Below are positions 3,265-46,915 of a stretch of 64,000 nucleotides of DNA, one piece after another (position 1 is the stretch's first letter; the number at the start of each line of letters is the position of its first letter). Below the pieces are notes generated by a model. That model saw only the letters and a program-made list of their open reading frames with translations, did not search any database and was not told where the DNA came from. Source of the DNA: Okamejei kenojei (lineage: Eukaryota); contig CM069138.1 of assembly GCA_035221665.1 (NCBI GenBank), positions 86,924,001 through 86,988,000 on the forward strand, read 5' to 3'. The translations under genes and the position numbers were made by a program.

Positions 3265-6200
3265 TGGCGTCAGAAGTGCTTCTTCCTGCGTCTCTGGTCT
3301 ATCGCGTTTTATTTCATTAGTCCCAGTACCCCCTCCTGGTTCCGTGATGGCTTCTGCCTGTCGTAAGCCTGACATCCTAGTCTTTGATGCAGACATCACT
3401 CATCGCTGGAGTGTGTTCCGACGGGACTGAGCATTATGTTACCATCGCCCACCCTGCTGTGGCCCCCGCTGTCAAGGCTTCCCTGCTGCTTAACCTGGCT
3501 GGTCCGGAGGCGCTCGAGCGTTCGGAGTCGTTCGTCTATGGACATGGTGAGAGTGCCCAAGACCCCGATTGCCTGATTGCTAAATTTACGGCGATGTGTG
3601 ACCTTCCCACTAATCACATTTTAGAGCGTTTCAAACTGTTCTCCAGACGCCAGAACCCTGGGGAGTCTATTGACAATTTTATGGCCGCGCTGCGCCAGCT
3701 GGCTCGCCGATGTAACCTGCATGACCTGACCCCCGATACCTTGACCCGTGACATTTTAGTCTTTGGTCTGCGGGATGAAAAGCTGGGCTCTGAGCTGCTG
3801 CGTAAGCCTGATCTGACATTCCATGAGGCGCTGCATGCCTCTCGTTTAGCTGAGGCTGTCTCCTCCGCTGTACCTGACCCTGTGGTCCACACAGCCAGTC
3901 TCGCTGGTCCCCCCGGTACAATTGCTCCCCGGCGACAGTGGGCAAGACCACTGCAGGGCTCCAGACCGCCTCAACGATGTCCAAATTGTAACTTTGTCTC
4001 ACACCGTTTTAATGTGTGCCCGGCGTTGGGGAAAACCTGTAACTTTTGCAACAAGCTCGGGCACTTTTCAGCTGCATGCCGTTCCCGTGGGAACACTGCT
4101 CAGCCACAGCGGAAACCGTCTCGCTACCTGACACGTGATGATTCAGCGTCTGGTTCCCATCTCCAGCACGATGATCTTCCCCCGTCTGACCTGAATCTTC
4201 TCAGAGCGAGCTGGATGTGTTTTCCTTGCGAGGTGCAGCTGGACTGATAACGGACCCGACCGTCCGAGTCACGGTGAATGGCATGGCCTTCTCTGCTAAG
4301 GTCGACACGGGGGCAGCTGCCAATGTTATGTCAACAAGCCTGTTCAGGAAGATAAGAAATAATGAGCCTGTTTCCACAGACAGTGCTGTTTTGCGTGCCT
4401 ATGGGGGTGGCGTGCTTATTCCTGTGGGGAGGGCCACTCTCCACTGCACTGGTCGACCACTCGGCCCCTCTCTTTCTTCCTGCTGGACAGTAAATGTGAC
4501 CCCCTGTTCGGCGTGGAGGCCTGCCAGGACCTCGGGTTGGTGAGCTTCCACAGCGATGTCCACCTGGTAGAGGCACCCCTGAACCCGCTGGCCGAATTCC
4601 CGGACCGGTTCGACTCGAAGCTGGGGAAGTTGCCCTGCAGCTACAAGATTGCCCTCAATCCCGACATCACGCCGGTCGTCCGTCCCCCGCAACCGTGTGT
4701 CCTTTGCCATGAGGGGCAAGTCGAGTCTGCTCTTCGCGAGATGGTGGCCCACGGGCATCCTGGCGCAGTCACGGACTCCACCCAGTGTGGTTTTTCTACT
4801 ATGGTTGTCGCTGCGAAGAAAGACAAGAGCGAAATACGGATCTGCATCAACCCCAAGGACTTGAACTTGGCCATCAGGCGCCCGCACTATCCCATGCGGA
4901 CGGTGGAGGATGTTGCTGCGCAGGTTGGCCCTGCCACCGTGTTCTCGTTCTTGATGCCAAGAGTTCGTTCTGGCAGATACCTCTAGACGAGCGGTCCTCG
5001 CACCTGACAATCTTCAGCACGCCCTTCCGCAGGTATCGCTTCCTCCGCATGCCGTTGGGATCAACTCTGCCAGCGAGGTGTTCCAGAGGACCATGAACAA
5101 CTGTTTGCTGGACTTTCCGTGTGCCATCATTGTCGACGACATCCTGGTTTATGGGAAGAATGGTCGCTGAGCACGACCACCACCTTTCGTCAGGTGCTGC
5201 AGCGGGCCCGGGAGGTCAACCTGAAACTCAACCCGAAAAAGTGCCGATTCCGGGTCCCTGAGGTCACCTATGTGGGGCATGTTTTCACGGCACGGGGCTG
5301 AAGCCCGACCCGCAGAAGACGGCCGCAATATCCGAGATGCCTGGCACCTGCTGACGTGCCTGGCCTGCAGCGCTTCTTGGGCATGGTCAACTAACCTGGG
5401 AAAGTTCATCCCCCGACCTGAGTGAACTGAGTGCCCCTCTGCGGGATCTGGTGAAAAAGGACACTGCCTGGGCCTGGTTCCTGCAACACCAGCGCGCATT
5501 TGACACCCTCAAAGTCTAAGCTGGTCAGCATGCCAACGCTGAAGTACTTCGACCTCCAGCGCCCCATCGTTCTCACTGTGATGCCTCTAAGTTTGGCCTC
5601 GGGGCCGCCTGCCTGCAGATCCATGATGGGGTGCAACTGCCTGTGTCCTACGCGTCCCGCACAATGACGTCCGCTGAACAACACTATGCCCAGATTGAGA
5701 AGGAACTGCTGGCGGTTGTCTTTGCCTGCTCCAAATTCAAGGACTATATCCTGGGCAACTGTTTCACTGTCGAGACGGACCACCAGCCTCTGGTCACCAT
5801 CCTCAACAAGCCAATACACCATGGCCCCTCCCGGCTCCAGCGCATGATGCTCCAGCTACAACGCTTCACTTTCACAGTGGTTTATCGCAAGGGCAAGGAC
5901 ATGGTTGTTGCTGACACGCTGTCTCGGCGGCGCCTCTCTCATCCACAACCCAGCATCCGTACGAGAACGTTCCGATCTGATAGTCCTGGGCGTGAACTTC
6001 GTGCCCTCACGGACAGTTGAAGTCCCTAGCCGAGCACACGGCGGCAGACGCTTCGTCTACAGCAGCTGGCCGCGATCATCAGGCAGGGTTGGCCAGAACC
6101 GCCGTTCTTCCCTGCCGGCCGCTGCGGTGCCTTACTTCTTGGTTCGTGACGAGTTGGTGCTGCGTGATGGTGTGATTGTGAAGGGGCACAAGGTGGTGGT

Positions 6201-7568
6201 GCCCGAAGCACTACGGTAACAATACTTCGAAACCCGCTCATCGTGGCCATCCCGGGGCCGAGGCGAACCCTTTCCATCTCTCAGATCCAGTTCTTCTGGC
6301 CCGACATTGCTTTGCTACTTCCCGGGATAGGGTCTCCGCGTGCCCTACCTGTAACTGCCAACGCTCCGCAGCAACAGTGGCAGCCGCTCCTGCAGCAGCC
6401 AGCTGCTTGACCTGCCATGGTCTGCGCTAGCAACCGACATCTTCCGAGTGCACGGAAAGCACTTCCTGGTGCTTGTCGACTCTTACCTCCAGCTGGTTTG
6501 AAGATGACCAGCTCCACTCCCTCTCTTCCTCCGCAGTCATCGACAAGTTGCGCCGCCACTTTGCCACCTTCGGGTACCCCCGTCAGCCTGCAGTCGGACA
6601 ACGGCAGCCAGTTTCACCAGTGCCGAGTTCCGCGATTTTGCTGAGCGTTGGAAACTTTCGTCATTACGCCAGCAGCCGGAATACCCAACAGAGCAATGGA
6701 CTGGCCGAGCGCATGCGGTCCTGCAGTGCTAAAGGACTGTTGGAACGTTGCCGCCTATCCCGCTCCGACATCTACCTGGCCCTGCTGAACCTCCGCAACA
6801 TCTCCCCGCGACCATGCCCTGGGCTCCCCGGCTCAGCGACTCATGTCCCCGAGTCACAGGCCCACGGTCCCGGTGTCTCAGCAGTCCCTGTCCCCTTCCG
6901 TCCTTAAGCCTGCCTTGGTCCGGGAGCGCATTACCGAAAGACACAGTATCCCAGAAGCATTCCCACGACAGGTCCTGCCGTGTCCTCTGGCCCTCTTCTC
7001 CCTGGCCAGGTCGTCCGTATGTGGTCCCCTTTCTGGCCGTTCCAGGCTGGCCGTGGTCGTCGGCTCTGCCGGTTTCCCCTCGCTCCTACCTGTCAACCGC
7101 GACGGAAGGGTGTACCGCCGGTCCCCGGCCAGCATCTCCGGCTCGTGAACGAGCCTCTCCCACCCCCCCGGCGGCTCCTTATGCCCCCCCGCTGCCCCTG
7201 TTGCGGCCCTGTGCTTTGCCCATTCCTCTGGGGCCGGCCTCCCCTCGTCCTCCTCCGGAGCGCCTCCCGGCTGCGGTCCCGCTTTTCTCCGGCTTCCGCG
7301 CCCTTCTCTTCGCCTCCCTCCCCGCTGCCTTTTCATCGCCAAGGGTTCTCCTGTCCTAGCCCCCCACCATGCCCCGCGTCCCCGCTTGTTACTGTCGGGG
7401 AAGGAGGTGATGGCGAGTGGCGGACCCAGTCTGGTCGCCTGGTCAGGCCGCCGGTCCGCTACGGCGATTACGTGTGATCCTGTATCCCTGTGCTTTACTG
7501 TTTGCACTCACCTGGCGCATGAGACGTGGTCGCCCTGTCACTCACTGTTTGTTTTGGTAGAGGAAGGA

Positions 7569-7772
7569 TGTAGATGATATGTGTGTACACCTTTAATTGA
7601 TAGTAACGATGTCCATGCTAACCACTCCCCCACCAGTTAGTATAATTGTAACCCACACGCCCCTAGCTCTCTCTCTCTGGTGTTCGTGACAGACCATGTA
7701 CAGCCAGGGCTATGTATGACGTGTGCTTAATAAAAGTGCTGAAGACTTAAAGGTGTCTTAGAGCATTCTTCA
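7569..7772 (+). repeat. Gypsy 3' LTR (204 bp)
   Basis: Direct repeat of 3063-3264, preceded by the polypurine tract. Confidence 0.97.
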
Positions 7773-10585
7773 CTTCCCAAACTAGAATTGCAGGAACAAG
7801 AGGAATTGGGAGCACAAATCTCAAATAAGGGAATAGAAGAAACAATATTCTCATTAAAAAATGGAAAAACACCAGGTCCCGACGGATTTAGTAATGAATT
7901 CTATAAAAGTTTTTACGATATATTTAGTCCTCGTCTACAGAAAATGTACACACACGCTTTCAGAGAACAAATATTACCTGATACACTAGCAGAATCTACG
8001 ATTACATTAATACTTAAGAAAGATAAAGATGAGGAAGAACCTGGATCCTTTAGAGCTATCGCGTTGTTAAATACAGATCAAAAAATATTAGCAAAAATAT
8101 TAGCAAGAAGATTAGGTAAGTACGCCATTAAACGAATACATCCGGATCAAATGGGCTTTATCCCTAAGAGACATTCATTTAATAATTTGAGACGTCTGCT
8201 TAATATAATGCACTCATACCAAACTAAAGATCCAAATCGCGCAATTATTTCGCTGGATGCAGAGAAAGCATTCAATCAGGTTGCATGGAAGTATATGGTT
8301 AAGGTATTGCAAAAATTTCAACTGGGAGAGAATTTCATTCAATTGATTAAATTAATATATAATAAGCCAACGGCCAGAATATTAACTAATAATATTTTAT
8401 CCATGAAATTTCAACTGTCAAGGGGTCATAGACAAGGTTGTTCATTATCACCATTGTTATTTGCCCTCATCATTGAACCACTAGTGGAAAGAATTAGAAC
8501 TCATCCGAATATCCATGGATATAAGACAAAATATTCAAACAATAAAATATCATTATACGCTGATGATGTACTTTTGTGCATCACAAAGCCTCATATCACT
8601 ATACCCAATATTTTAAATTTAATTGAGGGTTTCGGTTCATTTTCAGGTTACAGAATAAATTGGAATAAAAGTGAAATCATGTCAATAAAACCGAAAGATT
8701 CTATAAATCTCGTACAATTTCCTTTTAAAATAGCTGGGGGGAAATTTAAATACTTGGGCATTGAAATTACTAGAAGATATCAAGCCATGTTTAAAGCAAA
8801 CTATAACCCTGTACTTAAGAAATTACATAATTTAATTAAATTCTGGAAAACACTCCCGATGTCCTTAATAGGTCGAATAAATGCCATAAAAATGATTTTT
8901 CTACCTCAAATTCTATACTTGTTCCAATCAATCCCACTATATCTACCCAAAAGGTTTTTTAAAAAATTGGACTCAGATATTACAAATTTTATTTGGGATT
9001 ATAAGTCCCATAGAATACAAAGACCACACCTGAATGAACCCAATGTAGTAGGGGGATTAGCACTCCCTAATTTTATGTATTATTATTGGTCGGTAAATAT
9101 TAGAAATATGATTCAATTGTTGGATAATGCTCTTCATCAACCGAATGGATCATTATGGAGAAAGAGACAGCTCCCCCTTTAATATTGGTGCGATCCTTCT
9201 TTCACCAATGACGGTGAATAATACAAGCTACAAACAAAAACTCAATTATACATAGTACAATCAAAATTTGGAAACAAATAAAATACAATTTAAAACTAAG
9301 AAACTTATCTCTCCTATCTCCTATTGCTAAAAACCTTCTGTTTAAACCCTCAATTATAGACAAAGCATTCATACAATGGAAAGAGCAGGAATTAAAACTT
9401 TGGGAGATTTGTATGATACGGGAAAACTATTATCATTTAAACAATTACAACTAAAATACAATCTGGATAACAATCATATTTTAAATATTTTCCAAATATG
9501 TGATTATTTGAAAAACACATGCACATGAATTTCACACAATGCCATTAGACTTACTAGATGAAGTAATGAATGCAAAGGCGGAACCACCAAATTAATTTCA
9601 CATATATATAACATTATACTAAATGCAGTAATACCAACAAACGGAAGTTTGTGAGGTGAGTGGGAAAACGAACTAAGCATAAAAATTTCCAATGAAAGGT
9701 GGAATGAATACTTATTAAATGTGCACAAATGCTTAACATAAGACACACTTTAATACAATTTAAAATTATACATAGATTATACTACTCAAAAAACTAAATT
9801 AAATACAATTTTCCCTAACGTTTCACCAATTTGTGATAAATGCACTGTCAAGAAGCTACTATAGCGCACTCATTCATCTTTTGTACAAAAATTCAAAGGT
9901 TTTGGATGAAATCTTTGAAATGTTCACAAAAGTGTTTAAAATAAAAATGACACCAAAGCCAGAATGGATTATTTTCGGAATGGCAGAAGGTAGTCCGGAA
10001 TTAAATGTGTACAAAAAGAATTTCTTTGATTATGGCTTAATAAAGGAAAAAAAAACTAATCTTAAAATTCTGGAAAAATGCTCCTATACCAACATTAAAT
10101 ATGTGGATTTCAACTATGTTTGAAACACTACACCTGGAAGATATGAGACTCTGCCTGGAAGGAAAATCAGAACGCTTCTTTCAGACGTGGTCTGCATTTA
10201 TAGAACTGCTACAAAGATAGGGTGCAGGAGTACCTCGGACCTTGGTAGGGGGGGATGAAAAACTATGGAGTTGGTGGATTCCTTTTGCGTGATATATATA
10301 ACAGAGTAACTGGCTTTTTTTCTTTTTCTTTTTCCTTTTCCTTTTCTTTAGGGTCTATCTCTTAACCCCCTTTCTCTAATTCTTTGACCAAGGGTTTCTT
10401 CTCCCTTTTGGAACGCTCTTTCACTATCACAACTCTTTTCACCTATTTAACTCTCTTTCTTTCTATTCTTTTTCTTTAAAAGCCATAACATTATGGGGTA
10501 CAATGATTGTGACAAGATATATGTGAAGTACATTGATGTATTTACCTCTAATAAATAAAATATTTAAAAAAAAAACAAAAAAAAC

Positions 10586-10994
10586 TGTTTTACCTTTGTT
10601 GCACGCATTTCTAATTTCCTGTTTGATGCCATCCCCAACTCCACTACTACTTTTAGGTGGCCTGTACACATCTCCCACTAGCGTTTTCTGCCCCTTAGTG
10701 TTTCGCAGCTCTACCCATATCGTTTCCACATCCTCCAAGCTAATGTCCTTCCTTTCTATTGCGTTAATCTCCTCTCTAACCAGCAACGCTACCCCACCCC
10801 CTTTTCCTTTCTGTCTATCCCTCCTGAATATTAAATATCCCTGGATGTTCAGCTCCCAGCCTTGGTCACCCTGGAGCCATGTCTCTGTGATCCCAACTAT
10901 ATCATATTCATTAATAACTATCTGCACATTCAACTATATCATATTCATTAATAACTATCTTCACATTCAACTCATCCACCTTATTACAAATGAG
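10586..10994 (-). mobile_element. CR1 LINE fragment (APE endonuclease)
   Basis: YDIVGITETWL, FRRDRQKGKGGGVALLV, YRPP motifs in ORF 10463-10933. Confidence 0.88.
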
Positions 10995-12739: not shown

Positions 12740-15700
12740 ATCCTGCCAACTAGAAGGGGGAAGGTGGGTGACAGTGAGAAACGGAAGTAAACATGGAATG
12801 CACAGATCCCCGGGTGTTGTACCTCGTGTGAACAGGTTCATCCACTTAAAAGCTGTCGGGTCAGAAGATGTTGACACACTCTGCGACGCACTGGCTTGCG
12901 ATGCAAAACGTGCCGTTGAGCCAAAATCATGGAGGCCGACGCCAGGCAACGCAGTGGTGGTTGGAGACTCCATTGTGAGAGGTACGGACAGGGGTTTCTG
13001 CTGCAACAGTAGGGATTCGAGGATGGTGTGCTGCCTGCCAGGATCCACGCTGTCACGGACAGTGCAGAAAATCCTCAAGGACGAAGGTGAACAACCGGAC
13101 GTTGTAGTGCATGTCGGCACAAACGATGTCGGAAAGAAGGGGATGAATATTCTGAAGCGTGACTTTAGAGAGCTCGGAAAAGTGCTGAAAGCAGGACCTC
13201 CAGGGTGGTTGTCTCCGGTTTGCTTTTAGTTCCTCGTGCTGGCGAGAGCAGGAACAGGGAGATACAGGACCTGAATGTGGCTGGGGAACTGGTGCAGGGG
13301 GCAGGGATTTAGATTCTTAGACAACTGGGATCTGTTTTGGAGTAAGGGGGAACTGTACAAAAGGGACGGGCTGCACCTTAACAGGTGGGGGACCGGCATT
13401 CTGGCAGGCAGGTTTGCCACTGCTACACAGGTGGTTTTAAACTAAATTGTGGGGTTTACCGAGACGTGGCTGCAGGAGGATCGGGTCTGGGAACTTAATA
13501 TTCAGGCTTATTCATCCTATAGGAAGGACAGGCAGGTGGGCAGAGGAGGGGGGGGGGGGGGGGGTAGCTCTTCTGGTGAGGAATGGAATTCAGTCCCTTG
13601 CAAGGGTAGACATAGGGACTGACGAGGTAGAGTCACTGTGGATTGAGTTGAGGAATTGTAAAGGCAAGAAGACACTAATTGGTGTTATCTACAGACCCCC
13701 TGGATGAAGGGTGTAAGTTGCACCAGGCGTTAAAACTGGCATGTAACAAAGGTAATGCCACTGTGGTGATGGGGGATTTCAATATGCAGGTAGACTGGGA
13801 AAATCTGGTTGGTTCAGGACCCCAAGAAAGAGAGTTTGTAGAATGCCTCCGAGATGGATTCTTAGAGCAGCTTGTAATGGAGCTGACCAGAGAAAAGGTA
13901 ATTCTGGATTTAGTGTTGTCCAATGAACCAAATTTGATAAGAGAACTCGAGGTAAAGGGACCACTTGGAGGTAGTGATCATAATATGATTCGGTTTAATC
14001 TGCAATTTGAGAAGGAAAAGGTTAAATCGAAAGTGGCAGTGATGCAGCTGAACAAAGGGGACTATGAAGGCATGAGGGGGGAGCTGGCCAAGGTAGACTG
14101 AAAAGGGATACTAGCAGAAATGACGATGGAACAGCAATGGCAGGAATTTCTGGGCATAATCCGGAAGACACAGGATCATTTAATTCCAAAAAGGAGTAGG
14201 AGGCAACCGTGGCTGACAAGAGAAGTTAGGGATAGAATAAAACTAAAAGAAAAGATGTATAACACAGCAAAGAGTAGCCGGAAGCTGGAGGATTGGGAAA
14301 CTTTCATAGAACAGAAGGAAACAAAACTGGCAATACGGGCTGAAAAGATGAAGTACAAGGGGAAGCTGGCCAGGAATATCTCTTCTTGCGTATGAAGCAG
14401 TTTGAAGGCGATGTTCACCTGTGTCACAGGATCTTGGAACCGTCATTACATGGTGTGCGGTTTCTGTTCGAGGTGTGTACAGGCTGCTGAAGGGCGCAGT
14501 CCCCAACGTTTCATGTTATGATTGAAAAACGCAACACCAGTTCGCAGACGCTTCAGTGTAACCCACTCTCTGCGGATGGCAACAGTGTTTTGGTAACGGT
14601 CATTGTGGGCGGGATGTTGGGTGTCCTGCCAGCAGGCTCTCCATAGCTCATAGCAGAACAGCCAGGAATATAAAGAAGGACAGTCTTCTTGAGAAATGTT
14701 AAGGGAAAAAGAGGAGCAAAGTCAAATGTGGGTCCCTTGAAGGCAGACACGGGTGAAATAATTATGGGCAACAAGGAAATGGCAGAAGAGTTGAATAGGT
14801 ACTTCGGATCTGTCTTCACCAAGTAAGACACAAACAATCTCCCAGAAGTACTGGAGGACAGAGGATTTCAGGGGATCGAGGAATTGAAATAAATTTTCAT
14901 TAGGCGAGAAATAGTATTGGATAATGGGACAGAAGGATGATAAATCCCCTGGACCTGATGGTCTGCGTCCCAAGGTCCTCAGGGAGGGGACTCCAGAAAT
15001 AGTGGACGCATTGGTGAACATTTTCCAATGTTCAATAGATTCAGGATCAGTTCCTGTGGATTGGAGGATAGCTAATGTTATCCCACTTTTCAAGAAAGGA
15101 ACGAGAGAGAAAACGGGGAATTACAGACCAGTTAGCCTGACTTCGGTGTTGGGAAAGATACTGGAGTCAATTATTAAAGAGGCAATAATGGGGTATTTGG
15201 ATAGCAGTAAAAGGATTAGTCCAAGTCAGCATGAAAGGAAAATCATGCTTGACTAATCTTCTTGAATTTTGTTGACAATGTGACAAGTAAAATGGATGAA
15301 GGGGAGCCAGTGGATGTAGTGTATCTGGACTTTCAGAAAGCCTTTAATATGGTCCCACACGGGAGACTGGTGACTAAAATTAGAGTGCATGGTATTGGGG
15401 GTAGGGTGTTGATGTGGAGAGAAAATTGGTTGGCAGACAGGAAGCAAAGAGTAGGAGTGAACAGGTCCTTTTCAGAATGGCAGGCAATGGCGAGTGGTGT
15501 GCCGCAAGGCTCGGTGTTGAGGCCACAACTGTTTACCATATATATTAATGAATTGGAAGAGGGAATTAGGAGCAACACTAGTAAGTTTACGGATGACACA
15601 AAGCTGGGTGGCAGTGTGAACTGTGAAGAGGATGTTAGGAGGTAGCAGGGTGACCTGGACAGGTTGAGTGAGTGGGCAGATGCGTGGCAGATGCAGTATA

Positions 15701-16719: not shown

Positions 16720-19453
16720 AGTGGTAAACTAATACATCCAGTTCAAACTGGGTTTATACCTAAATGACACTCGTTTTTATCATTTGAGTCATTTGTTTAA
16801 CATAATATATTCGCAGAGAATGCCAAATGAAGATCTAACAATTATTTCTCTAGATGCAGAAAAAGCTTTCGACCAAGTCTTATTTTTTCACACTGTTGTA
16901 AAAATTCCAACTGGGAGAAAACTTTATTTTATGGGTGAAGCTTTTATACACTAATCCGACAGCTAGAATACTAACAAATCAAATGCTTTCACCTAAATTT
17001 TATTTATCTAGGGGTAACAGACAAGGATGTGCTCTATCTCCAATGTTATTTGCTTTAGCCATAGAACCTCTTGCCGAGAGTATCAGGTCCCATACAGGCG
17101 TTTAGGGATATAATAATAGAATATTGACTGGCCTTGAGGGGGATACGACATATATTGCCTGAAGTAGATTCATATTGCCCGAGTCGAAGACGAGGGCAAT
17201 ATGGATCTAGTGAGGGCAATATATGTCGTATCTCCCGAAAGAGGACAGTCAATATTGTTATTATTACCCATATCAGACATCTAGAGGAAAATTTGAACAT
17301 CTCAGCTCGGCGGACTTCCACGTAAAATTTAACCAAAATGGACGCGGCAGTCTTCCTGTCTGCCGTTGAATATTCTAAATTTCCCACGCAGCGTCACGTT
17401 TGCCGTCACGTTGCCAAGTTCCCGGATGTGAGACCAGGGGAATATAAAAACTATATTCCCGCTGTTTTAACAGGTAAAGTCCATAGGCGTTCGCAAGAAA
17501 GGGGAATATAAGAAAATATTCCCCTGTTACCCCTGCTGGCAGTAAAAACGAAGGGAATACAATTTTGTAAAAGCATACCTCAGATGTGTGATATGGGTAA
17601 TAATAATAGAATATTGACTGGCCTTGAGGGGGATACGACATATATTGCCTGAAGTAGATTCATATTGCCCGAGTCGAAGACGAGGGCAATATGGATCTAG
17701 TGAGGGCAATATATGTCGTATCCCCCGAAAGAGGACAGTCAATATTGTTATTATTACCCATATCAGACATCTAGAGGAAAATCTTCGTCAAAAGTTGCGA
17801 ACCTCTTCTCGCAGGAGGCTGCCATTTTGCTTGTTTTGTCGAGAACAAATTCTAAATTTCCCACGCAGCGTCACATTGCCAAGTTCCCGGATGTGAGACC
17901 AGGGGAATATTATAGAATATACTTGGGCTTGTTTTGGTTAAAATGTAAAGTCTATTCACTCGTGGCGGCGAAGCCCCGAAGTAGTACTAGTTTGGAGGCA
18001 CCGAGGCAAGTTCTAAACCAGAAACTTCGTTTTATATTAGGGATCAAACATTACAAGAAAATTGGTACTTACCTTAAGTGTTTACAACATCGCGGCGGGC
18101 TATTTATCCCGAGTGAATAGAGAAATTATACGCAAGCGGGCGGAGAGCGGGAGAATTTCCCTTTCAGAAAAATGCTTTCTGTGCGGGCGATGACGAAAAG
18201 TTGGAGTCACCCCGAGACGGTGCCGTGGCAGGCGCGAGAGTTCCCGTTACATGCCACGCGGAGCTGTGACATGATTTCCCGAACATAGCTAAATGCTATT
18301 TACAAAAATGTCGTATAAAAGCATAAATAGTAACATCGTTGTGAGTGTCAGCGTGCCAACAATTCTAAAATGTTGAACAACTCACGTGACGCTCTCTCGA
18401 AGCTGGATCCGCTACTGTATTTAGTCCATAGGCGTTGACAAGCACAAACAAGAATTTCTCATAGACTCCGATGTGTGATATGGGTAATAATAAATAGAAT
18501 ATTGACTGGCCTTGAGGGGGATACGACATATATTGCCTGAAGTAGATTCATATTGCCCGAGTCGAAGACGAGGGCAATATGGATCTAGTGAGGGCAATAT
18601 ATGTCGTATCCCCGAAAGAGGACAGTCAATATTGTTATTATTACCCATATCAGACATCTAGAGGAAAATCTCAACATCTCAGCTCGGCGGACTTCCACGT
18701 AAAATTTAGCCAAAATGGACGCCAAAGTCTTCCTGTCTGCCGTTTGGGAATATAGACCCCTCTAAAATATTCCCTGCGTTGCCTCCTTCGCAAAATCTCG
18801 TTTGCTGTTCGTCACGCTACCTCTTCTCGCCTGCCATTTTGCTTGTTTTGTCCAAATTCTAAAATTTCCCACGCAGCGCCACATTGCCAAGTTCCCGGAT
18901 GAGACCAGGGGACTATATTTACCGCTGTTTTAACACGTAAAGTCCATAGGCGTTCAGCAAGAAAGGGGAATACAAGAAAATATTCCTGTTAACCCTGGGC
19001 AGTAAAAACGAAGGTACAATTCAGATGTGTGAATATGGGTAATAATAATAATTATACGTTTAAACCCGATCTGGTCCACAATTGGTTAAATACATGGATT
19101 TGTGCACCGTGAACAGAGTTTGCATTTACCCATCTGCCGTTTCGCAGCGTCACGTTGCCGTCAGTTGCCAAGTTCCGGTATGTGAGACCAGGGGAATATA
19201 AGAACGCGTTTTAAGGTAAAGGGCGTTCGTAAAAGAAAATATTCCCCTGTTACCCCTGCTGGCAGTAAAAACTAAGGGAATACAATTTTGTAAAAGCATA
19301 CCTCAGATGTGTGATATGGGTAATAATACCAAATATACATGCAGATGATGTACTTTTATACATTACTAATCCCCAAGTTAGTATTCCAAATGCTCTAAAC
19401 ATCACAGAACAATTTGGTTCTTTTTCTGGATAAATCGGAACAAAAGTGAAATC
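16720..19453 (+). mobile_element. L1 RT fragment split by the hairpin-element array
   Basis: IHPVQTGFIP, ISLDAEKAFD and GNRQGCALS before 17110; resumes at 19329 with ADDVLLYITNP..FGSFSG..NKSEI, collinear with L1 copy 3. Confidence 0.85.
17111..19328. mobile_element. Tandem array of an unclassified non-autonomous DNA element with a long terminal hairpin, flanked by TAATAATA direct repeats
   Basis: Three near-identical ~155-bp imperfect palindromes centred at 17187, 17677 and 18565; right-end motif CAGATGTGTGATATGGGTAATAATA (or close variants) at ~17580, ~18470, ~19022 and ~19303; TAATAATA at 17111 and 19321; removing the array rejoins the L1 RT sequence. Confidence 0.85.
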
Positions 19454-20105
19454 GCGCGCAGCGAAACGTGGAGGGGCGTGGCGGGGGCGCGCATGGCAAG
19501 ACGTGCCGGGGAAGCGTGTTGCGGCGAGGTGTGGCGCGCATAGCGAGACGTGCCGGAAGTGCGCGCACCAAAGCGTGGAGAGGCGAGGCGTGGCGGGGGC
19601 ACACAGGGTGAGACATGCTGGGGGCGCGCACAGCGAAGCGTGGAGGGGCGAGGCAAGGCGCGCAGAGTGTTGGGTGGGCGTGCACGGCGAGACGTGTGGA
19701 GGCGCGCACGTCGAAGCGTCGAGGGGCGCGCTCGGCAAAGCGTGGAGGGGCGGGGTGAGGCGGGGGCGTGCGCTGCGAAGCGTTGAGGGTCGAGGCGAGG
19801 GCGCGCACGGCGAAGCGTGGAGGGGCGAAGCAAGGCGGTGGCGTGCACGGCAAGGCGAGGCAGGAGCGCACACAGCGAGGCGTGGTGGGGGCTGCACGGG
19901 GAGGCGTGGCAGGGGCGCGCACGGGAGGCGTGGCGCGGGCGCGCACAGCGTGGCAATAGCGCGCACGGCAAAGCGTGGAGGGGCGAGGCGTGGCGTGGGC
20001 GCGCATGGCGAGGCGTGGCGGGGCGCGTGCGGGGAGGCGTGGCGGGGGCGCGCACAGCGAGGCGATAGCGCGCACGGCAAAGCGTGGTGGGGTGTGGTGA
20101 GGGGG
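19454..20105. repeat. Degenerate GC/CpG-rich tandem repeat (GGCGCGCACGGCGAAGCGTGGAGG-like), upstream part of the CpG island
   Basis: Recurring GCGCGCAC, AAGCGTGGAGGGGCG and GAGGCGTGGCG motifs. Confidence 0.75.
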
Positions 20106-20300
20106 GGGCGCGCATGACGTTGCGAGGCGGGGGCGCGCATGACGTTGCGGGCGGGGGCGCGCATGACGTTGCGTGGCGGGGGCGCGCATGACGTTGCGGG
20201 GCGGGGCGCGCATGACGTTGCGGGGCGCGCATGACGTTGCGGGGCGGGGGCGCGCGCGGCGCGGAAGGGCGAGGCGGAGCCGGGCCGCCATGTTGGCGGT
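20105..20300 (+). promoter_or_regulatory. PAPOLG CpG-island promoter: 6 copies of GCGCGCATGACGTTGCG (CRE/ATF-like TGACGT) with GC boxes, and a YY1-type GCCGCCATGTTG motif
   Basis: Motifs read directly from the sequence; located immediately upstream of exon 1; no TATA box seen. Confidence 0.7.
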
Positions 20301-20448: not shown

Positions 20449-20719
20449 GTAAGTGAGGGCTGGCGGCGCAGAGACCGAGAGACGGAGAGGCCTCGGCGCC
20501 TCCCCCACCCCCCGCTCCCCGTCTGAGGAAGGCCGTCCCTCTCCAGCGCCGCCGCCGGTGTGTGAGTGGGAGCCCGCGGCCGCCCAGCCTCTGCCCTGCG
20601 GGTGTCTGACCCACACACCGAATGCCGGAGTCACTCGGCGGCACAGGCGGCGGCTCAGGGCACAAGGGGCGGCGGATAGTTGGGGCCCAGACCCTTCCTC
20701 ATGCTCAGGGGAGGGGGGG

Positions 20720-21985
20720 AGGGAGGGGAGACTGGGGATATGGAGGGTCGGGAGGGGGGGGGGACTGGGGATATGGAGGGTCGGAGGGAGGGAGGGGGGG
20801 ACTGGGATATGGAGGGTCGGGGGGGGAGGGTGGGTGGGGGGGACTGGGGATATGGAGGGTAGGGGGGGGGGAGGGAGGGGGGCTGGGGATATGGAGGGGG
20901 GAGGGGGAGGGGGGGGACTGGGGATATGGAGGGTCGGGGGGGAGGGAGGGCGGGACTGGGGATATGGAGGGGGGGGGGAGGGAGGGGGGACTGGGGATAT
21001 GGAGGGTCGGGGGGGGAGGGGGGACTGGGGAAATGGACTGGGGATATGGAGGGTCGGGGGGGAGGGGGGGACTGGGGATATGGAGGGTCGGGGGGGGAGG
21101 GGGGACTGGGGATATGGAGGGTCGGGGGGAGGGGGGGGGGACTGGGGATATGGAGGGTCGGGGGGGAGGGAGGGGGACTGGGGATATGGAGGGTCGGGGG
21201 GGAGGGGGAGATGGGGATATGGAGGGTCGGGGGGGAGGGGGGGGGACTGGGGATATGGAGGGTCGGGGGGGAGGGGGGTACTGGGGATATGGAGGGTCGG
21301 GGGGGAGGGGGGGGCGGGACTGGGACTGGGGATATGGAGGGTCGGGGGGGAGGGGGGAGGGGGGGGGAGGGAGGGGGGGACTGGGGATATGGAGGGTCGG
21401 GGGGGGGGAGGGAGGGGGGGGGGGATGGGGATATGGAGGGTCGGGGGGAGGGGAGGGGGACTGGGGATATGGAGGGTCGGGGGGGAGGGGGAGGGGACTG
21501 GGGGATATGGAGGGTCGGAGGGGGGGGAGGGGGAGGGGGAGACTGGGGATATGGAGGGTCGGTGGGGGGGAGGGGGGACTGGGGATATATGGAGGGTCGG
21601 GGAGGGGGGACTGGGATATGGAGGGTCGGGGAGGGGGGGGACTGGGGATATGGAGGGTCGGGGGGGGGAGGGGGATGGGGGGGGGGAGGGGGGGGCACTG
21701 GGGATATGGAGGGTCGGGGAGGGGGACTGGGGATATGGAGGGTCGGGGAGGGGGGCTGGGGATAATGGAGGGTCGGGGGGGGAGGGGAGACTGGGGATAT
21801 GGAGGGTCGGGGGGGGAGGGACTGGGGATATGGAGGGTCGGGGGGGGGAGGGGGGGATGGGAGGGTCGGGTGGGATATGGAGGGTCGGGGGGGGAGGGGG
21901 GACTGGGGATATGGAGGGGCGGAGGGGGAGGGGATGGACTGGGGATATGCAGGGTCGGGGAGGGGGGGACTGGGGATATGGAGGG
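20720..21985 (+). repeat. G-rich minisatellite, ~30-33-bp unit GACTGGGGATATGGAGGGTCGGGGGGGAGGGGG, about 40 copies, in intron 1
   Basis: Tandem units with variable G-run lengths; source of the spurious Gly/Pro-rich ORFs. Confidence 0.95.
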
Positions 21986-24522: not shown

Positions 24523-27500
24523 GGGGGGGGGGGGGGAAGAGCTACCTTAAATTTAGTTGCATCGGGTTGGGTAACGACGGTAGGGTGAAGACTATTCCAT
24601 GCTTTGATTGTGTTGGGGAACTCCATGGAGCAGCCAGCATCTCTGGATAGAAGAAATTGGGTGATATTTCGGGTAGAGACCATTCTTTAGATTTCCTGTG
24701 TTTTTAGTTGAATTTAAAGGTACAGCGTGGAAACAGGCCCTTCAGCCCACCAAGTCCACGCCGACCACCGATCACCCGTACACTAGTTCTATCCCACACA
24801 TTAGAGACGTGTCAAGAGTGTTTTATTCTCTCACATCCTGAAATCCTTACTTGCAGCAGCACAACAAAATATGTAAACATAGTACTCTGTAAACAATATT
24901 ATAAATGAGAAAACAAAACGGTGTATATTNNNNNNNNNNNNNNNNNNNNNNNNNNNNNNNNNNNNNNNNNNNNNNNNNNNNNNNNNNNNNNNNNNNNNNN
25001 NNNNNNNNNNNNNNNNNNNNNNNNNNNNNNNNNNNNNNNNNNNNNNNNNNNNNNNNNNNNNNNNNNNNNNNNNNNNNNNNNNNNNNNNNNNNNNNNNNNN
25101 NNNNNNNNNNNNNNNNNNNNNNNNNNNNNNNNNNNNNNNNNNNNNNNNNNNNNNNNNNNNNNNNNNNNNNNNNNNNNNNNNNNNNNNNNNNNNNNNNNNN
25201 NNNNNNNNNNNNNNNNNNNNNNNNNNNNNNNNNNNNNNNNNNNNNNNNNNNNNNNNNNNNNNNNNNNNNNNNNNNNNNNNNNNNNNNNNNNNNNNNNNNN
25301 NNNNNNNNNNNNNNNNNNNNNNNNNNNNNNNNNNNNNNNNNNNNNNNNNNNNNNNNNNNNNNNNNNNNNNNNNNNNNNNNNNNNNNNNNNNNNNNNNNNN
25401 NNNNNNNNNNNNNNNNNNNNNNNNNNNNNNNNNNNNNNNNNNNNNNNNNNNNNNNNNNNNNNACCTTTGGAGTGCGGGAGATAACCCTAACACTAACTCT
25501 AGATTGATAGGCTTGGTATTTATAAATTATTCCTCGCTTGTGTGGGATAGTGTGCGGGGGATCGAAGGTCACTATCTCTGAACTAAATGTGACACGGGGG
25601 CCCCAGGGGTTGGACTTGAACCCTCAATATTCTGCATGGGAACTAAACTGTTGGTCACGAGTTGTTCCAGACTCTCTTCCAATGGTCTCTCCAAACCCCC
25701 AGAGGCAGCAGGCTTTTCAACTGGGTACAGGCAATGTTGTCAATGTACCGGTGCCACCCATCTGCTCCGTCCACTGAGTCTAAATACCCACCACCCATTT
25801 TGAAGCAAGGTGGGGGCGTGTTGTTCCCAAAGTCTGCATTTTCCCATAGTCAATGTTACTAAAACAGATGATGTGGAGATTTTGTGCAGTACTATTAGTG
25901 GGATCTAGCTTTCACAGGCTGGGTCTACAAATGGGGGGCGTCAGGGAAAGTGGGAGGGGGTTGGAAGATGGGAGGGGGAGAAGAGTGGCGGGGAAAGGAA
26001 GAAGGGGGAGAGGGGTGGAAGGAAGAGAAGAGTTCAGTCTACACTCACTGAATCCATCCCTGTGAAAAGTTAGAGACGGTGATTTGGAATTAGAAGCAGA
26101 CCAAAATAAAATAAAACTGAACAATTCAGAAATCTTTTCATTTGCACAATTGAATTTATTGTATTAATTTTAATATATTCATGTTTAAAACCCGTGCATT
26201 GAAGGAAGAATATTTTACAGCCCATCTGTGGATCCTAACCCTAACTGGGCATCACCCACAGGACAGCATACGTCAGCGTGTGACAGGGCACACGACATGA
26301 TGAGACGCCCAAATGTCGCCCCTAGATTTTGAACATTCCAAAATCCTGGGGCGACAGGGAGACACCGTGTGTCGCCCGTGGGTCACTACTTGCGTGACGA
26401 CCCGACCACGACGCGACAACTTCTTTTCAGGCTATCGCCGAAAATGTCTCCCAAGTGGGACAGGCCCTTAAATCCCTCACCCCACAGGAGGGGGAGAGAA
26501 ACTGCAAAGCCACCTGCCTGCGTTTGTCCCATGTCCCTCCAAACCTGAACTATCCATGTACCTGTCCCTGTCTTTCTATCTGCCTCTCTCTCTGTCTACC
26601 TCTTTCCCTGCCTCTGCTCTTTCTGTCTCTCTGGGTCTCTGTGACTCTGTCTCTCGCTTACCAGTTCTCCCCCACATTTTCCATCAGAAGCCCACACTGA
26701 AATTTGGGCATTGAAGCTCCACCTAATGCTCCAGTGTAGTGCCAAGTAACAGCCATGTTGCTGAAAGGGTTGTTGTGAAGTCCTTGACTTCGTCCTTACC
26801 ATACCGGCAAGTTCAGCTGAGGCTGAGCGAAGCTTCAGCCGGCTGAAGCAGCTGAAGATCACCATCAGAAGTTCCCTCCAGGACGACCAGGTGACGGATC
26901 TGCTCTTCATTGGCCTGCGCTGCACGCCAATAACATCAAGGACCTTGATCCCTGACCAGCCATCAGATTGTGGCATGCAGGAGGGATTAGTGCAAGGAGG
27001 CCTGACACGGGAGAAGACCCAGCTGCAGCATCTGCCTCGGGACCTCACCCTGACAGTGACAAGTCTGATGAGGAGGATGCTCTGCTCGAGAGCGACTCGG
27101 ATGACAATTAAAGTGACTTTTACATGTATTTGAACAGCTCTGTCTTTACTTTGCTTTTCAGGAGATGGTTTAAATATCAAGCAGAAAGGTTACACAAGTT
27201 CTCACAAATATAATGTTTCTGTTCATTTAAAGTTGATATCTCTCCTTTCTCCCCCCCCCCCCCCAAAAACAAAAGAACACCAGCCATTTTTATTGCCCTT
27301 CTGGGCAATCTCACGTGCCCCGTTCCATGATTGATGCAATATAGTCTTCTTGGTGGGCACAGAGTAAAAGAGGTACTATGTACATTCAAAAGTATGGTAT
27401 AGGTCTGGTCAGGTGATAATAATAACAATACAGTAACAGTTATTTTACAAGAAAAATAAAATCACTTCCATTCTCTTTTTCTTTTACATTACAAACTCCT

Positions 27501-28299: not shown

Positions 28300-31267
28300 A
28301 CAGGCCATAACACCCCCACCACCATGTTTCACAGATGAGGTGGTATGCTTTGGTTCTTGGGCAGTTCCTTCTCGCCTCCATACTTGCTCTTGACATCACC
28401 CTGATATAAGTTAATCTTCGTCTCATCTGTCCACAAGACCTTTTTCCAGACCTGCGGTTGCTCTTTTAAGTACTTCTTGGCAAACTGTAACCTGGCCATC
28501 CTATTTTTGCAGCTAACCAGTGGTTTGCAACTGCAATGTAGGCTCTGTATTTCTGTTCATGAAGTCTTCTGTGGACAGTAGTCATTGACAAATCCACATC
28601 TGACTCCCGAAGAGTGTTTCTGATCTGCCAGACAGGTGTTTGGGGATTTTTCTTTATTATGGAGAGAATTCTTCTGTCATCAACTGTGGAGGTCTTCCTT
28701 GGCCTGCCAGTCCCTTTGCGATTAGTAAGCTCACCAGTGCTCTCTTTCTTCTTAATGTTCCAAACAGTTGATTTTAGTAAGCCTAAGGTTTGGCTGATGT
28801 CTCTAACAGTTTTATTCTTGTTTCTCAGTCTCATCATGGCTTCTTTGACTTTCATTGGCACAACTTTGGTCCCCGTGTTGATAAACAGCAATAAAGGTTT
28901 CCAAATGTGATGGAAAGACTAGGTGCTGAGAGCTCTCTTATACCTGCATTAATGAGGCAATTAAACACACCTGAGCAATTATAAACACCTATGAAGCCGT
29001 GTGTCCCAAACATTACGGTGTCCTGAAATGGGGGGACTATGTATAAACATAGCTGTAATCTCTACATGGTGAAACCAAAATGTATAAAAATGGCCTTTAA
29101 TAAAATCTGACAATGTGCACTTTAACCACATGTAATTTTTTTTTTCTATTACAAATCTCAAATTGTGGAGTACAGAGGCAAATAAATAAATGATGGGTCT
29201 TTGGCCCAAACATTATGGAGGGCACTGTATTTTATGTTGCAACAAAATCTTAAATTTATCAATTTAGTGTTCTGATTTTTTAATTTTTTGATTTAAGACA
29301 CAAATAAATTACATCCATAACATTTTAACTGTAGCATTACTGATGCAGTTACGAACCATTATTGCTTAAAACTTTTTTGTAAGCGTTCATATTTGATATA
29401 TAAGCGCATCCTGCAAAGTAGCTACTACTTCAACTCTTTTAACACTACACATCTGGATTAACAGGCATTATACAATTGAATCGTTGTCTATTCCTGTTTT
29501 GAAATGATCGGTGGACATTGTAATGGGAAAAGATAATTGGAACTCTTAGATTAATGGTGGATTTGGAAGTAAACCTGCGCTTGCTTGTCAAGTTTTCACT
29601 GACTGCAATATGTTTATTGTTACCTAAGAGGAAATTTGTTTTGTGTGCTTTTTGGATCTAAGCTTTATGTAACAAGTCTGTTAAGCTGACTTGTGACATT
29701 TTGAAAGTTTGTTTTAAAATGGTTTTGCTGTACTCCAATGCACTTAGTATTAAGCATAATACTTGGATATTAATTTGACAATTTACGTAGACCAAGTGCA
29801 TAGGCCCACTGGCAAATTATCTCTGCTTCATAAATCTTTTGTGTTAAATCTGCTAACACAATACCTGCTGGCCTTCTGGACAAATTGTTTCTGGTTTGCA
29901 CGCTTTGGTGTGCAGTTTATTTGCACAAAAGATCGATTTTGTTACCGGTTCCATTGCAGAACTATCTCTGCAATTGTTCCCATTGCAATTCCAACCACTG
30001 CTCCTTCCCCTAACATGTGTTGGTGCCACTATGTAGAAATTGTGTATTTCTGGCAAATTGGTTTGCAGTTTAAGAAAAAAAGCAAGTGGGAAGATGACTG
30101 AAGAAATTAACTGTGAATGGGCAGCTAGAGGAACGTATTCACGGTCCCAAAACCAAAGCAGGAAGGAAATGGAACACAGTAGTTAAAGAAGCAAACCTTT
30201 TATGAACAGGGATTATATAGAGCTTTAGAGATTTGAAATTTAAGTAACTGTGCACTCAAATTTCAAGTGTAGATTTTCACAGACTCTGCGGGGGGGGGGG
30301 GGGAGAGGGAGAGGGGCGGTTCTTACAAGTACTATATGTTGTGTGTGATTTGAAGTTTATGTATTCCCAGAACTAATCAGTAGGAGAAAAAAAATGAAGG
30401 AGAGCTGCTATGTGTATACATTCTGTCACAATTTGCTCCACCTTTCATTCTCTTTTTGCTTTATGGTGAAGGAGAGAGGGAAATGTCAGAGCACTATAAC
30501 TATGGATCACAAGCCGCATATAGCAGGCAGCAGTGAGGTTTCTACTTGCAGGAATATAGCCGTGAGGTGATTTAAGTTCACATGGGGTCACAACCATTGA
30601 TCCAAGAAAGTGAGTTTGAATCCCAGCACTGGAGCTAAAGCATTTAAGTGTGTAATAAAGCAAGACAATAGAAACACAATTGATAACAGTGCTAACAATG
30701 AAACTATTGGATTGTTTGTCTTTAAAAATGCCACCTGGTTCATTCATATCCATGGGGAAGGAAATCGGTCATCCTTGTCTTTCTGACCAATGTGTACTCT
30801 AAACCCACCAATGGCTATTGTACGAAGAAAGATAATCCAATGTCCCTTAACTTTTAAATTGCCATGATGCTTGTAACCTGTATTTTGTGGTCTTTCTAGT
30901 CAGCCAATGTATTTCAATCCTTTGTTTAAGAAAGAACTGAAAAATCGAAGGTAGACAAAAATGTTGGCGAAACTCAACGGGTGAGGCAGCATCTAGGGAG
31001 ACAAGGAATAGGTGATGTTTCAGGTCGAGACCCTTCTTCAGACTTGATCTTGAATCCTTGATTAGATTTGACCAAGAGCAAGTAGGCTTGCCACATTTCA
31101 AATCTTTTGAGGTTAATACATTTGTCCCTTAAGCATGGTGCATGTTACATAGATACATAGAAAATAGGTGCAGGTGGAGGCCATTCGGCCCTTTGACCCA
31201 GCTCCGCCATTCATTGTGATCATGGCTGATCGACCCCAATCAATAACCGGTGCCTGCCTTCTGGTAA

Positions 31268-44909: not shown

Positions 44910-46005
44910 ATAAGTGATAGTGGGAATAAAGAAATGGCAGAGGAATTGAATAACTTTATTGCATTAGTCGTCACAGTGGAAAACACCAGCAACGTGGCTG
45001 AAATTCAAGAGAGTTAGTGGGTGGAAGTGAGTGGAGTGGGAGAGGTGTTTGGGAAACTGAAGGGGCTGAAGGTGGATAAGTCACCTGGGCCGGATGGACT
45101 GCACCCTCGGGTTCTAAGAGGTGGCTTTAGAGATTTTGGAGGCATTGATAGTGATTTCAGGAATCGCTCGTCAGGAATGATCCCAGATGATTGGAAAATT
45201 GCCAATATTACCCTGCTGAACAAAAAGGGAGCAAGGCAGTATAGTGGGAAATATAGGGCGGTTTGTCTGACTTCGGTGGATGGTAAGTTTTTAGGGTCCA
45301 TTATTATAAAGGATGAGGATACGGAGTACATAGAAGTTCATGATAAAATAGGCCAAAGTCAGCATGGCTATGTGAAGGGGGGTCTTGACAAATTTGCTGG
45401 AATTCTTTGAATAAGTAAATAGCAGGGCAGACAAAGGAGAGTCAGTAGAAGCTGTGTACTTAGATTTTCAGAAAGCCTTTGATGAAGTACCACTCGTTAA
45501 GCTGCTTACGAAGATGAGAGCCCACGGTATCAAAGCTTAGATACTAGCTTGGAGAGCAGGTTGGCTGGATCGCAGAAGACAGTGTCAATAAAGGGGGCTT
45601 TTCATAGTTGGCTGCCAGTGACTAGTGGTGTTCTGCTAGGGTCGGTGCTGGGGCTGCTACTCTTCACGTTGGATATTAATGATTTGGACGAGGGGATTGA
45701 AGGCTTTGTGGCAAAGTTAGCAGATGATATGAAAATAGGTGGAAGGGCAGGTAGTGTGGTCAAAGCAGGGACACTGCAGAAGGACGGACAGGTTGTGAGA
45801 GTGGGCAGAGAAGTGGTAGATGTAACCTAGTGTGGAGTCATGCATTTTGGTAGTAGGAATAAAGGCGTAGACTATTTTCTAAAAGGAGTGAGAATCCAGA
45901 AATCAGAGGTACAAAGAGACCTGGGAGTGCTGGTGCAGGATTCCCAAAAAGTTAATCTGCAAGTCAAATCGGTAGTAAAGAAAGTAAACTCAATGTTAAC
46001 ATTTA
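44910..46005 (+). mobile_element. CR1 LINE RT fragment
   Basis: DKSPGPDGLHPRVL, YRAVCLTS, SGVLLGSVLG, KLADDMKIG. Confidence 0.88.
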
Positions 46006-46915
46006 CAGTGCCCTCCATAACGTTTGGGACAAAAACCCATCGTTTATTTATTTCCCTCTGTACTCTACAATTTGCGATATGTATTAGAACAAATCACATG
46101 TGCACATTGTCAGATTTTATTAAAGGCCATTTTTATACATTTTGGTTTCACCATGTAGAAATTACAGCAGTGTTTATACATAGTCTCCACATTTCAGGAC
46201 TCCATAATGTTTGGGACACAGCAATGTCATGTAAATGAAAATAGTCATGTTTAGTATTTTGTTGCATATCCTTTGCATGCAATGACTGCTTGAAGTCTGT
46301 GATTCATGGACATCACCAGTTGCAGGGTGTCTTCTCTGGTGATGCTCTGCCAAGCCTGTATTGCAGCCATCTTTAGTTTCTGCTTGATTTGGGGGCTAGT
46401 CCCCTTCAGTTTTCTCTTCAGCATATAAAAGGCATGCTCAATTGGATTCAGGTCGGTGATTGACTTGGCCACTCAAGAATTGACCATTTATGAGCTTTGA
46501 AAAAACCCTTTTGTTGCTTTAGCAGTATATTTGCGATTATTGTCTTGCTGTAGAATGAACTGTCGGCCAATGAGTTTTGAGGCATTTGTTTGAACTTGAG
46601 CAGATAGGATGTGTCTGTACACTTCTGAATTCATTATGCTACTACCATCAGCAGTTGTATCATCAATGAAGATAAGTGAGCCAGTACCTTCAGCAGCCAT
46701 ACATGCCCAGGCCGTAACACCCCCACCACCAGATTTCATAGATGAGGTGGTATGCTCTGGATCTTGGGCAATTCCTTCTCTCCTCCATACTTATCTCTTG
46801 CCATCACTCTGATATATTAATATTTGTCTCATCTGTCCACAAGACCTTTTTTCCAGAACTGTGGTTGTTCTTTTAAGTACTTCTTGGCAAACTGTAACCT
46901 GACCATCCTATTTTT

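Follow-up and report, generated by a model that had tools for sequence, protein, structure and literature searches.

Animal elements of the CryptonA group are known to carry a single intronless DUF3504 gene in ~2 kb, to lack terminal inverted repeats and to leave plentiful deletion derivatives (PMC3212892, PMC13465315; here as below, for the cited portions of each paper). The supplement to the first account enters terminal repeats of animal Cryptons as "n.d.", none being reported, and direct repeats of 4–6 bp are not treated there as a requirement for CryptonA (PMC3212892); in the cited part of the second, no repeats were found in fungal CryptonA (PMC13465315). The ends of the Eulor5/6 repeats are said to resemble salmon Cryptons, in a passage that does not describe their structure (PMC5753468). 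Crypton movement has stood as a hypothesis since 2003, with the ends of animal CryptonA reported as featureless. For CryptonF/S, including the Goodwin circle model and CryptonF-1_cRei, an element end recombines with a similar short target, without true duplication and with clean excision proposed or seen; in the active CryptonF, excision is clean and copy number rises (PMC9977147). CryptonV is described as inserting specifically into microsatellites (PMC8869645).

Three other systems share features with the locus described here. In integron attC sites, used by the integrase IntI, and in the attP site of CTXphi, a strand-selective imperfect palindrome rebuilds the recombinase site, the partner is a duplex site, and units are added at the regenerated site. 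The attC site recombines solely in its folded single-strand form, requires no more than microhomology and carries extrahelical bases that block a second exchange, the product being resolved by replication, and CTXphi is named as the only similar case in the cited part of that review (PMC4792948). Helentrons and their non-autonomous derivatives (HINEs) show an asymmetric inverted repeat, a terminal palindrome, tandem arrays and no duplication (PMC4067079). Finally, DIRS elements combine a tyrosine recombinase with an internal stretch complementary to the joined ends.

The array in the window and its autonomous parent

The window is the whole 64,000-nt stretch analysed (coordinates 86924001-86988000) in the 2.76-Gb genome of Okamejei kenojei. 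Within it, an array of hairpin-bearing units interrupts a decayed frame (Table 1) which we take to be L1 ORF2 by the likeness of its translated motifs. An earlier sequence-only reading of this DNA had described an L1 RT split by an insert, and the empty site of 19 paralogous L1 copies bears this out, setting the insert at 17114 to 19326; a separate 20-bp deletion in L1 lies just to its right. As that reading also noted, the insert has neither a terminal inverted repeat nor a poly(A). Three copies of the ~180-bp left end open the three hairpin-bearing units. The right-end 16-mer occurs seven times in the window (0.08 expected), of which three are inverted and lie each just past a hairpin, in keeping with the complementarity proposed there, and four are forward, including the one at 19032-19047 that had been noted as an extra right end of the third unit.

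Table 1. Features of the array and its host site (window coordinates).
Feature	Position	Strand	Support or remark
Decayed L1 ORF2 (RT region; assumed label), split by the array	16760..19440	+	
Target-site left half (ATAA), L1-derived	17110..17113	+	Paralogous empty L1 sites, target counts, hotspot empty sites
Unit 1, 490-bp non-autonomous CryptonA derivative, family A	17114..17603	+	
Unit 1 terminal hairpin: arm 1, c-GAA-g loop (17186-17188), arm 2	17114..17257	+	
Internal complement of the joined ends: half-sites with 5-bp spacer, then right-end complement	17252..17287	-	
Tyrosine recombinase coding remnant	17302..17373	-	93% identity to full-length copy L098
First head-to-tail junction: right end meets left end over a 7-bp spacer; complete ~200-nt palindrome	17578..17777	+	
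Unit 2, family A derivative, 887 bp	17604..18490	+	Holds nested element; right part indel-rich
Nested second-family (B) CryptonA copy in unit 2	17911..18400	+	End approximate
Unit 3, family A derivative, right end 19045	18491..19045	+	Hairpin intact (98%); body indel-rich
Partial fourth unit, without hairpin	19046..19326	+	
Target-site right part (T + 5 bp + ATAT), L1-derived	19327..19336	+	Empty L1 sites, target counts

Unit 1 is 99.2% identical to its nearest copy among the loci compared, and its hairpin contains three tandem G.A steps when the + strand folds. The nested family B copy (85% identity, 14 gap openings, right end beyond recognition) sits at an internal ATAT-N6-ATAT site of family A. 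In the body of unit 3 (75% identity, 17-19 gap openings), the minus strand carries the beginning of the recombinase gene. The fourth unit consists of ~90 bp (19046-19140) with no match among the loci compared, followed by the family A right-end region, whose last 99 bp match unit 1 at 98% identity. Relative to the full-length copy L098, the window units are internal deletions that still include pieces of the gene. Of the claim that the insert has no ORF, it holds that no intact gene is present, but recombinase gene pieces do lie on the minus strand (the remnant in Table 1 and the unit-3 start); likewise, there are three units as described, but their bodies, described as different, all derive from one parent by deletion, apart from the nested second-family element in unit 2. 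The internal site of family A that holds the nested copy (window 17907-17920) is itself a hotspot of nested insertion for both families (L174, L001, L265, L276).

The bodies of units 2 and 3 show 75-85% identity with 14-19 gap openings, whereas 29 other family B loci are 98.7-100% identical, which could suggest that the array was assembled in error from a real family of monomers. Contigs from sequencing runs leave the bins 17985-18182 and 18777-18875 uncovered, and their joints bypassing the insert are paralogous L1 copies, neither observation carrying any weight here. An artefact is nonetheless very improbable, given that both outer junctions match the empty L1 site, that clean dimers and trimers occur at other loci, and that the 29-mer spanning the head-to-tail junction has at least 123 exact copies genome-wide. 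These copies likewise confirm in sequence the circle-junction architecture that had been proposed for the joint. The noise touches the letters of the inner units, where the indels of units 2 and 3 probably reflect assembly error or local decay, and does not call arrays as such into question; unit 1 is clean, and so are the hairpins and both outer junctions.

Family B, reached through the unit 2 body, has other sequence in the same layout, and its 2.34-kb copies encode a DUF3504 recombinase. Searching the genome with this protein recovered the family A parents: the recombinase gene is present in ten copies of 2,045–2,210 bp that have both ends of family A, and its frame runs without a break in L098 and L101. 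The L098 frame (478 aa, on the strand opposite the window's + strand) is the one frame of at least 250 aa inside the 2.16-kb element. Its product matches DUF3504 (PF12012; 41.8 bits against a cut-off of 29.7), with a QRICH1 domain below cut-off, and retains the catalytic residues R177, H299, R302, H325 and Y334 (R-H-R-H-Y). The predicted structure (pLDDT 70.6) has its best fold matches in QRICH1 and Cre, at a whole-length TM of 0.28-0.36; the integron integrase IntI ranks 44th among the fold matches, the recombinase being closer to Cre. The nearest named homologues among 241 matches are sea-urchin "KIAA1958-like" proteins (57%).

The expectation that these elements are non-autonomous, and that their tyrosine recombinase is encoded outside the window by longer copies, is thus supported by parents of ~2.15 kb with the same ends elsewhere in the genome. 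The element can no longer be called unclassified: its parent is a DUF3504 element whose membership in CryptonA is well supported by that domain together with its nearest homologues. In agreement, the family has no reverse transcriptase and no terminal inverted or long direct repeats. The reverse transcriptase/RNase H and the inverted or split terminal repeats of DIRS were not found, and the hairpin motifs are of DNA type. A non-autonomous Helentron (HINE), another HUH rolling-circle element or a MITE with a TAAT duplication would be suggested by the sub-terminal inverted repeat, the terminal palindrome and the lack of duplication, all shared with the cited HINE account (PMC4067079), and we give these readings next to no chance. 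The long copies that share these ends encode a tyrosine recombinase, with no further long frame beside it, the window units contain pieces of that same gene, and neither the terminal inverted repeats nor the target-site duplication of MITE and DDE elements were found. The hairpin of ~145 bp also differs from the 5-10 bp given for HINEs, and the 14-bp symmetric target is a further difference. Viral contigs yielded no relative.

At least four CryptonA lineages (L080, L083, L091, L095, L104), with 32-57% protein identity to family A, occur in this genome. Families C and D have the same end layout; in L104 the catalytic residues are intact, and a hairpin was not found nearby. In family B, the gene lies in both orientations relative to the hairpin (L069-L071, L081 and L085 versus L072-L079, L082 and L087). 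It points away from the hairpin in the copies most alike, which have a partial inverted copy of the inner arm, and towards it in the more diverged ones; the switch is possibly an inversion made by the recombinase. A KIAA1958-like DUF3504 frame without catalytic residues (L115:3093-4232, contig C3), with a family A copy ~2.3 kb away, is probably a domesticated host gene.

Copies, ends and target site of family A

Exact matches across the genome, which are lower bounds, number at least 751 for a left-end 23-mer, at least 1,208 for a right-end 22-mer, and at least 2,102 for an inner left-arm 18-mer (counted with a three-letter filter on one flank position and including the small sister family C). 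With relatives at ≥99% identity for 108 of 179 units, the family is young. Among 162 insertion loci (not a random sample), we counted 148 monomers, 11 dimers and 3 trimers, and neighbouring units are unlike in 14 of 17 pairs. The closer relative belongs to the right unit in eight pairs and to the left in four, with five ties; in the window, the left unit looks youngest.

Flanks of independent copies were aligned, as the sequence-only reading had advised, for 80 loci taken in order along one contig (C1) with the core not fixed, giving 82 left ends, 76 of them with a right end. The 4-bp cores at left and right are TATT/TAAT in 36 copies and TAAT/TAAT in 24, about six odd right cores being probably mis-placed matches. 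The two cores are identical in 26 of the 76 copies and different in 50, which excludes the target duplication of a MITE. The identical direct repeats of 4-6 bp at both termini that are expected of CryptonF/S are therefore not required here. After 12 tandem, tail-to-tail or odd cases were left out, 64 insertions defined a symmetric 14-bp target with a 6-bp spacer, ATAW↓T-N5-WTAT (letter counts A57 T58 A63 W64, T63 N5 W64 T58 A56 T51). As to microsatellites, the sites described for CryptonV, some copies sit in (TA)n or (TAA)n and most in mixed AT-rich sites matching this motif.

The crossover could be placed at a repeat hotspot, where 19 of 24 empty paralogues have one common sequence. Compared with these empty sites, the insertion takes its left core from the target and its right core from the element; one T is common to both, and nothing is duplicated or lost. 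Of 100 left ends in an unbiased listing counted by hand, 83 have the element's own left spacer, 12 a near variant or that of family C, and five an unrelated one. The element-fixed left spacer and the hotspot together indicate a crossover at the left edge of the spacer with no need for spacer homology, a trait shared with attC; in the window this point lies directly after 17113. The 8-bp direct repeat TAATAATA, previously taken as the crossover core, does not fit this picture. The empty L1 site reads GGATATAATACCAAATAT, with only 6 bp in common, and the crossover is a point between two half-sites sharing one T; the repeat is a by-product of target preference. An 8-bp target-site duplication was rejected on the empty L1 site, the hotspot and the core counts, as were variable target duplications of 10-20 bp, seen in 4 of 64 insertions and 5 of 164 motif-matched empty sites with no enrichment. 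The hotspot itself is one position in a young repeat family, with several independently filled copies (L159, L161, L102, L240-L263). Two aberrant insertions (L266, L267) comprise one with a short target deletion and one with the target spacer at both ends.

These counts also bear on a different account, in which the same element and enzyme move as a double-stranded circle, with two exchanges across a mismatched spacer as in the Goodwin model or with coupling sequences like those of Tn916/Tn1549, the hairpin being a binding or regulatory structure extruded by supercoiling. It is favoured by a duplex target that is symmetric around its 6-bp spacer, by the presence of the Tn1549 integrase among the fold matches of the recombinase, and by a foreign spacer in up to 5 of 100 left ends. 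A carried coupling sequence, however, predicts many foreign left spacers, most are the element's own, and the foreign spacer of L267 is that of its own target; carried coupling sequences are thus not supported by the left-spacer counts.

The right junction of an insertion rebuilds a full target, which fits the mixed arrays as well as two further kinds of joint. A family C right end is joined to a family A left end in 3 of 100 left ends listed (the reverse in 0 of 100 right ends listed), and in tail-to-tail dimers (L147, L167, L009, L274) a gap of exactly 4 bp separates the right ends, as insertion into the resident's right flank, taken in reverse orientation, would predict.

A strand-biased hairpin and a proposed folded-strand circle

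The junction at 17575-17780 folds into a single ~200-nt hairpin (-79.2 kcal/mol, z -18.7, 0/200 shuffles as good), confirming the complete ~200-bp palindrome reported where right and left ends meet; the - strand folds less stably (-68.7 kcal/mol). The spacer between the half-sites measures 7 bp at the joined ends and 5 bp within the internal complement, so that the folded strand carries a 2-nt bulge; for joined ends, target and internal complement, the spacers stand at 7/6/5. The 7-versus-5 offset is present in families A, B, C and D of this genome and in three metagenome loci (L287, L293, L313) of 15 inspected, the others being truncated, degraded or unclear. Among 80 metagenome loci, 37 have 1 kb of downstream flank; a hairpin of at least 100 bp lies 3′ of the gene in 22 of these and was not found in the other 15, against 0 of 31 upstream of the gene and 2 of 129 control pieces.

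The mismatches in these palindromes are unevenly divided between the strands. Across 19 dereplicated hairpins, read on the strand having the hairpin at its 5′ end, G.A mismatches outnumber C.T by 104 to 13 and tandem GA outnumbers TC by 40 to 0, while G.T and A.C show no strand bias (30 versus 20, p 0.20); given their common ancestry, these counts are not independent events, and p-values overstate independence. Loops are c-GNA-g or c-GNNA-g in 12 of the 19; a universal GNA loop was rejected, seven automatic apex calls, family D among them, being neither. Tandem GA steps are reported to stack strongly in DNA as a stabilising motif (PMC8163305), and GNA/GNNA mini-hairpins to be far more stable as DNA than as RNA (PMC13037366, both as cited in part). 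Tandem GA, loops and fold energies all favour the folding of one strand, as palindrome features do in attC. This bias does not follow the mRNA, since the gene is turned round in the young copies of family B.

In recombination by tyrosine recombinases, the top strand is cut at the spacer's left edge (5′ stagger). With the crossover at that edge, the strand exchanged would be the + strand, the one that folds, and the tandem G.A steps and GNA/GNNA loops are always on the strand that this polarity predicts to be exchanged. We therefore favour, by analogy with integron cassettes and with a probability of roughly 0.6, a model in which the element moves as a folded single-stranded circle by one strand exchange. 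One strand would be exposed, probably at replication; its arms would then fold, and pairing between the internal complement and the right end would splint the two junctions together on that one strand. Exchange by the recombinase would be limited to the folded strand: a single-stranded circle would be released, the empty site would be resealed on that strand, and the element would stay on the other. The circle junction would then fold into the 200-nt hairpin, a duplex recombinase site whose 2-nt bulge blocks a second exchange, and one exchange with a duplex target followed by replication would complete the insertion. As each insertion would rebuild a full target at its right junction, later copies could insert there and arrays of unlike units grow.

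The double-stranded circle leaves both the 40:0 strand bias and the conserved 2-nt offset unexplained. In its favour, the internal inversion in family B, whose young copies have the gene inverted, may need a two-strand exchange, a counterpoint to the folded-strand model. Also weighing against that model are the absence of the hairpin from 15 of 37 metagenome loci, an offset readable in 3 of 15 inspected, apices other than GNA/GNNA in 7 of 19 hairpins, the unbiased G.T and A.C counts, the lack of a clear age order within arrays and an enzyme nearer to Cre than to IntI. On balance, we consider the double-stranded circle possible but unlikely. Less likely still, the strand-specific hairpin could be a priming or replication signal of the excised circle, with integration at an ordinary duplex junction. 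GNA/GNNA mini-hairpins do occur at (phage) single-strand origins in the cited part of one account (PMC13037366), and three adjacent equal-length units in one array (L273) would fit local amplification. An origin would have no need of an internal complement that rebuilds the recombination site, bulge included, and arrays are mostly of mixed units, as counted above.

The folded-strand model would account for the clean excision with copy gain of the active CryptonF as well as for the mixed tandem arrays, and would describe a compact recombinase without need for spacer homology. Relative to attC and CTXphi, it would concern a eukaryotic element with its own Cre-like enzyme, a site split over two ends and complete only once joined, and tandem G.A steps and GNA loops as marks of strand selectivity. 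The broader proposal that animal CryptonA are the eukaryotic counterpart of integron cassettes, each a G.A-braced, 2-nt-bulged folded strand with a single exchange into ATAW-N6-WTAT, seems to us slightly better than an even bet. Were it true, a folded-strand recombinase pathway, described in the cited review as confined to integrons and CTXphi (PMC4792948), would exist also in animals and would have been recently active in a vertebrate, and folded-strand recombination would be the ancestral activity of the domesticated ZMYM/QRICH1/KIAA1958 domains.

In contrast to previous descriptions of CryptonA, both the ends and the target site are defined here, and the element has a hairpin at its end and an internal stretch complementary to the junction. 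The annotation of the Crypton-derived Eulor repeats describes them as hairpin-like and may thus already record the palindrome itself. A long strand-biased hairpin is absent from the cited account of CryptonF (PMC9977147), and the end architecture was not found in the literature searched, a scope that leaves Repbase, Repbase Reports, Dfam and subscription papers outside. This young high-copy family newly provides the base at which crossover occurs, the target site and the 7/6/5 relation of the spacers; it also offers an enzyme with an intact frame, exactly placed ends, a target of 14 bp and a prediction of which strand is active.

The remainder of the window contains further repeats. A GC-rich 24/25-bp tandem repeat (19440-20280) and a strongly G-skewed ~36-bp minisatellite of 35 copies (20715-21985) flank a GC-rich stretch, a possible G-quadruplex region. 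By their motifs, we take broken frames at 3381-6900, 48752-50170 and 57120-58280 to be Gypsy-like gag/pol/integrase, those at 1794-2402 and 7743-9182 to be further L1 ORF2 pieces, and those at 10463-10933, 13679-15645 and 45018-46238 to be CR1-like; a hAT-like C-terminal fragment (26596-27189) and a Tc1-like transposase fragment (28466-28918) are presumably also present, on the same motif basis.
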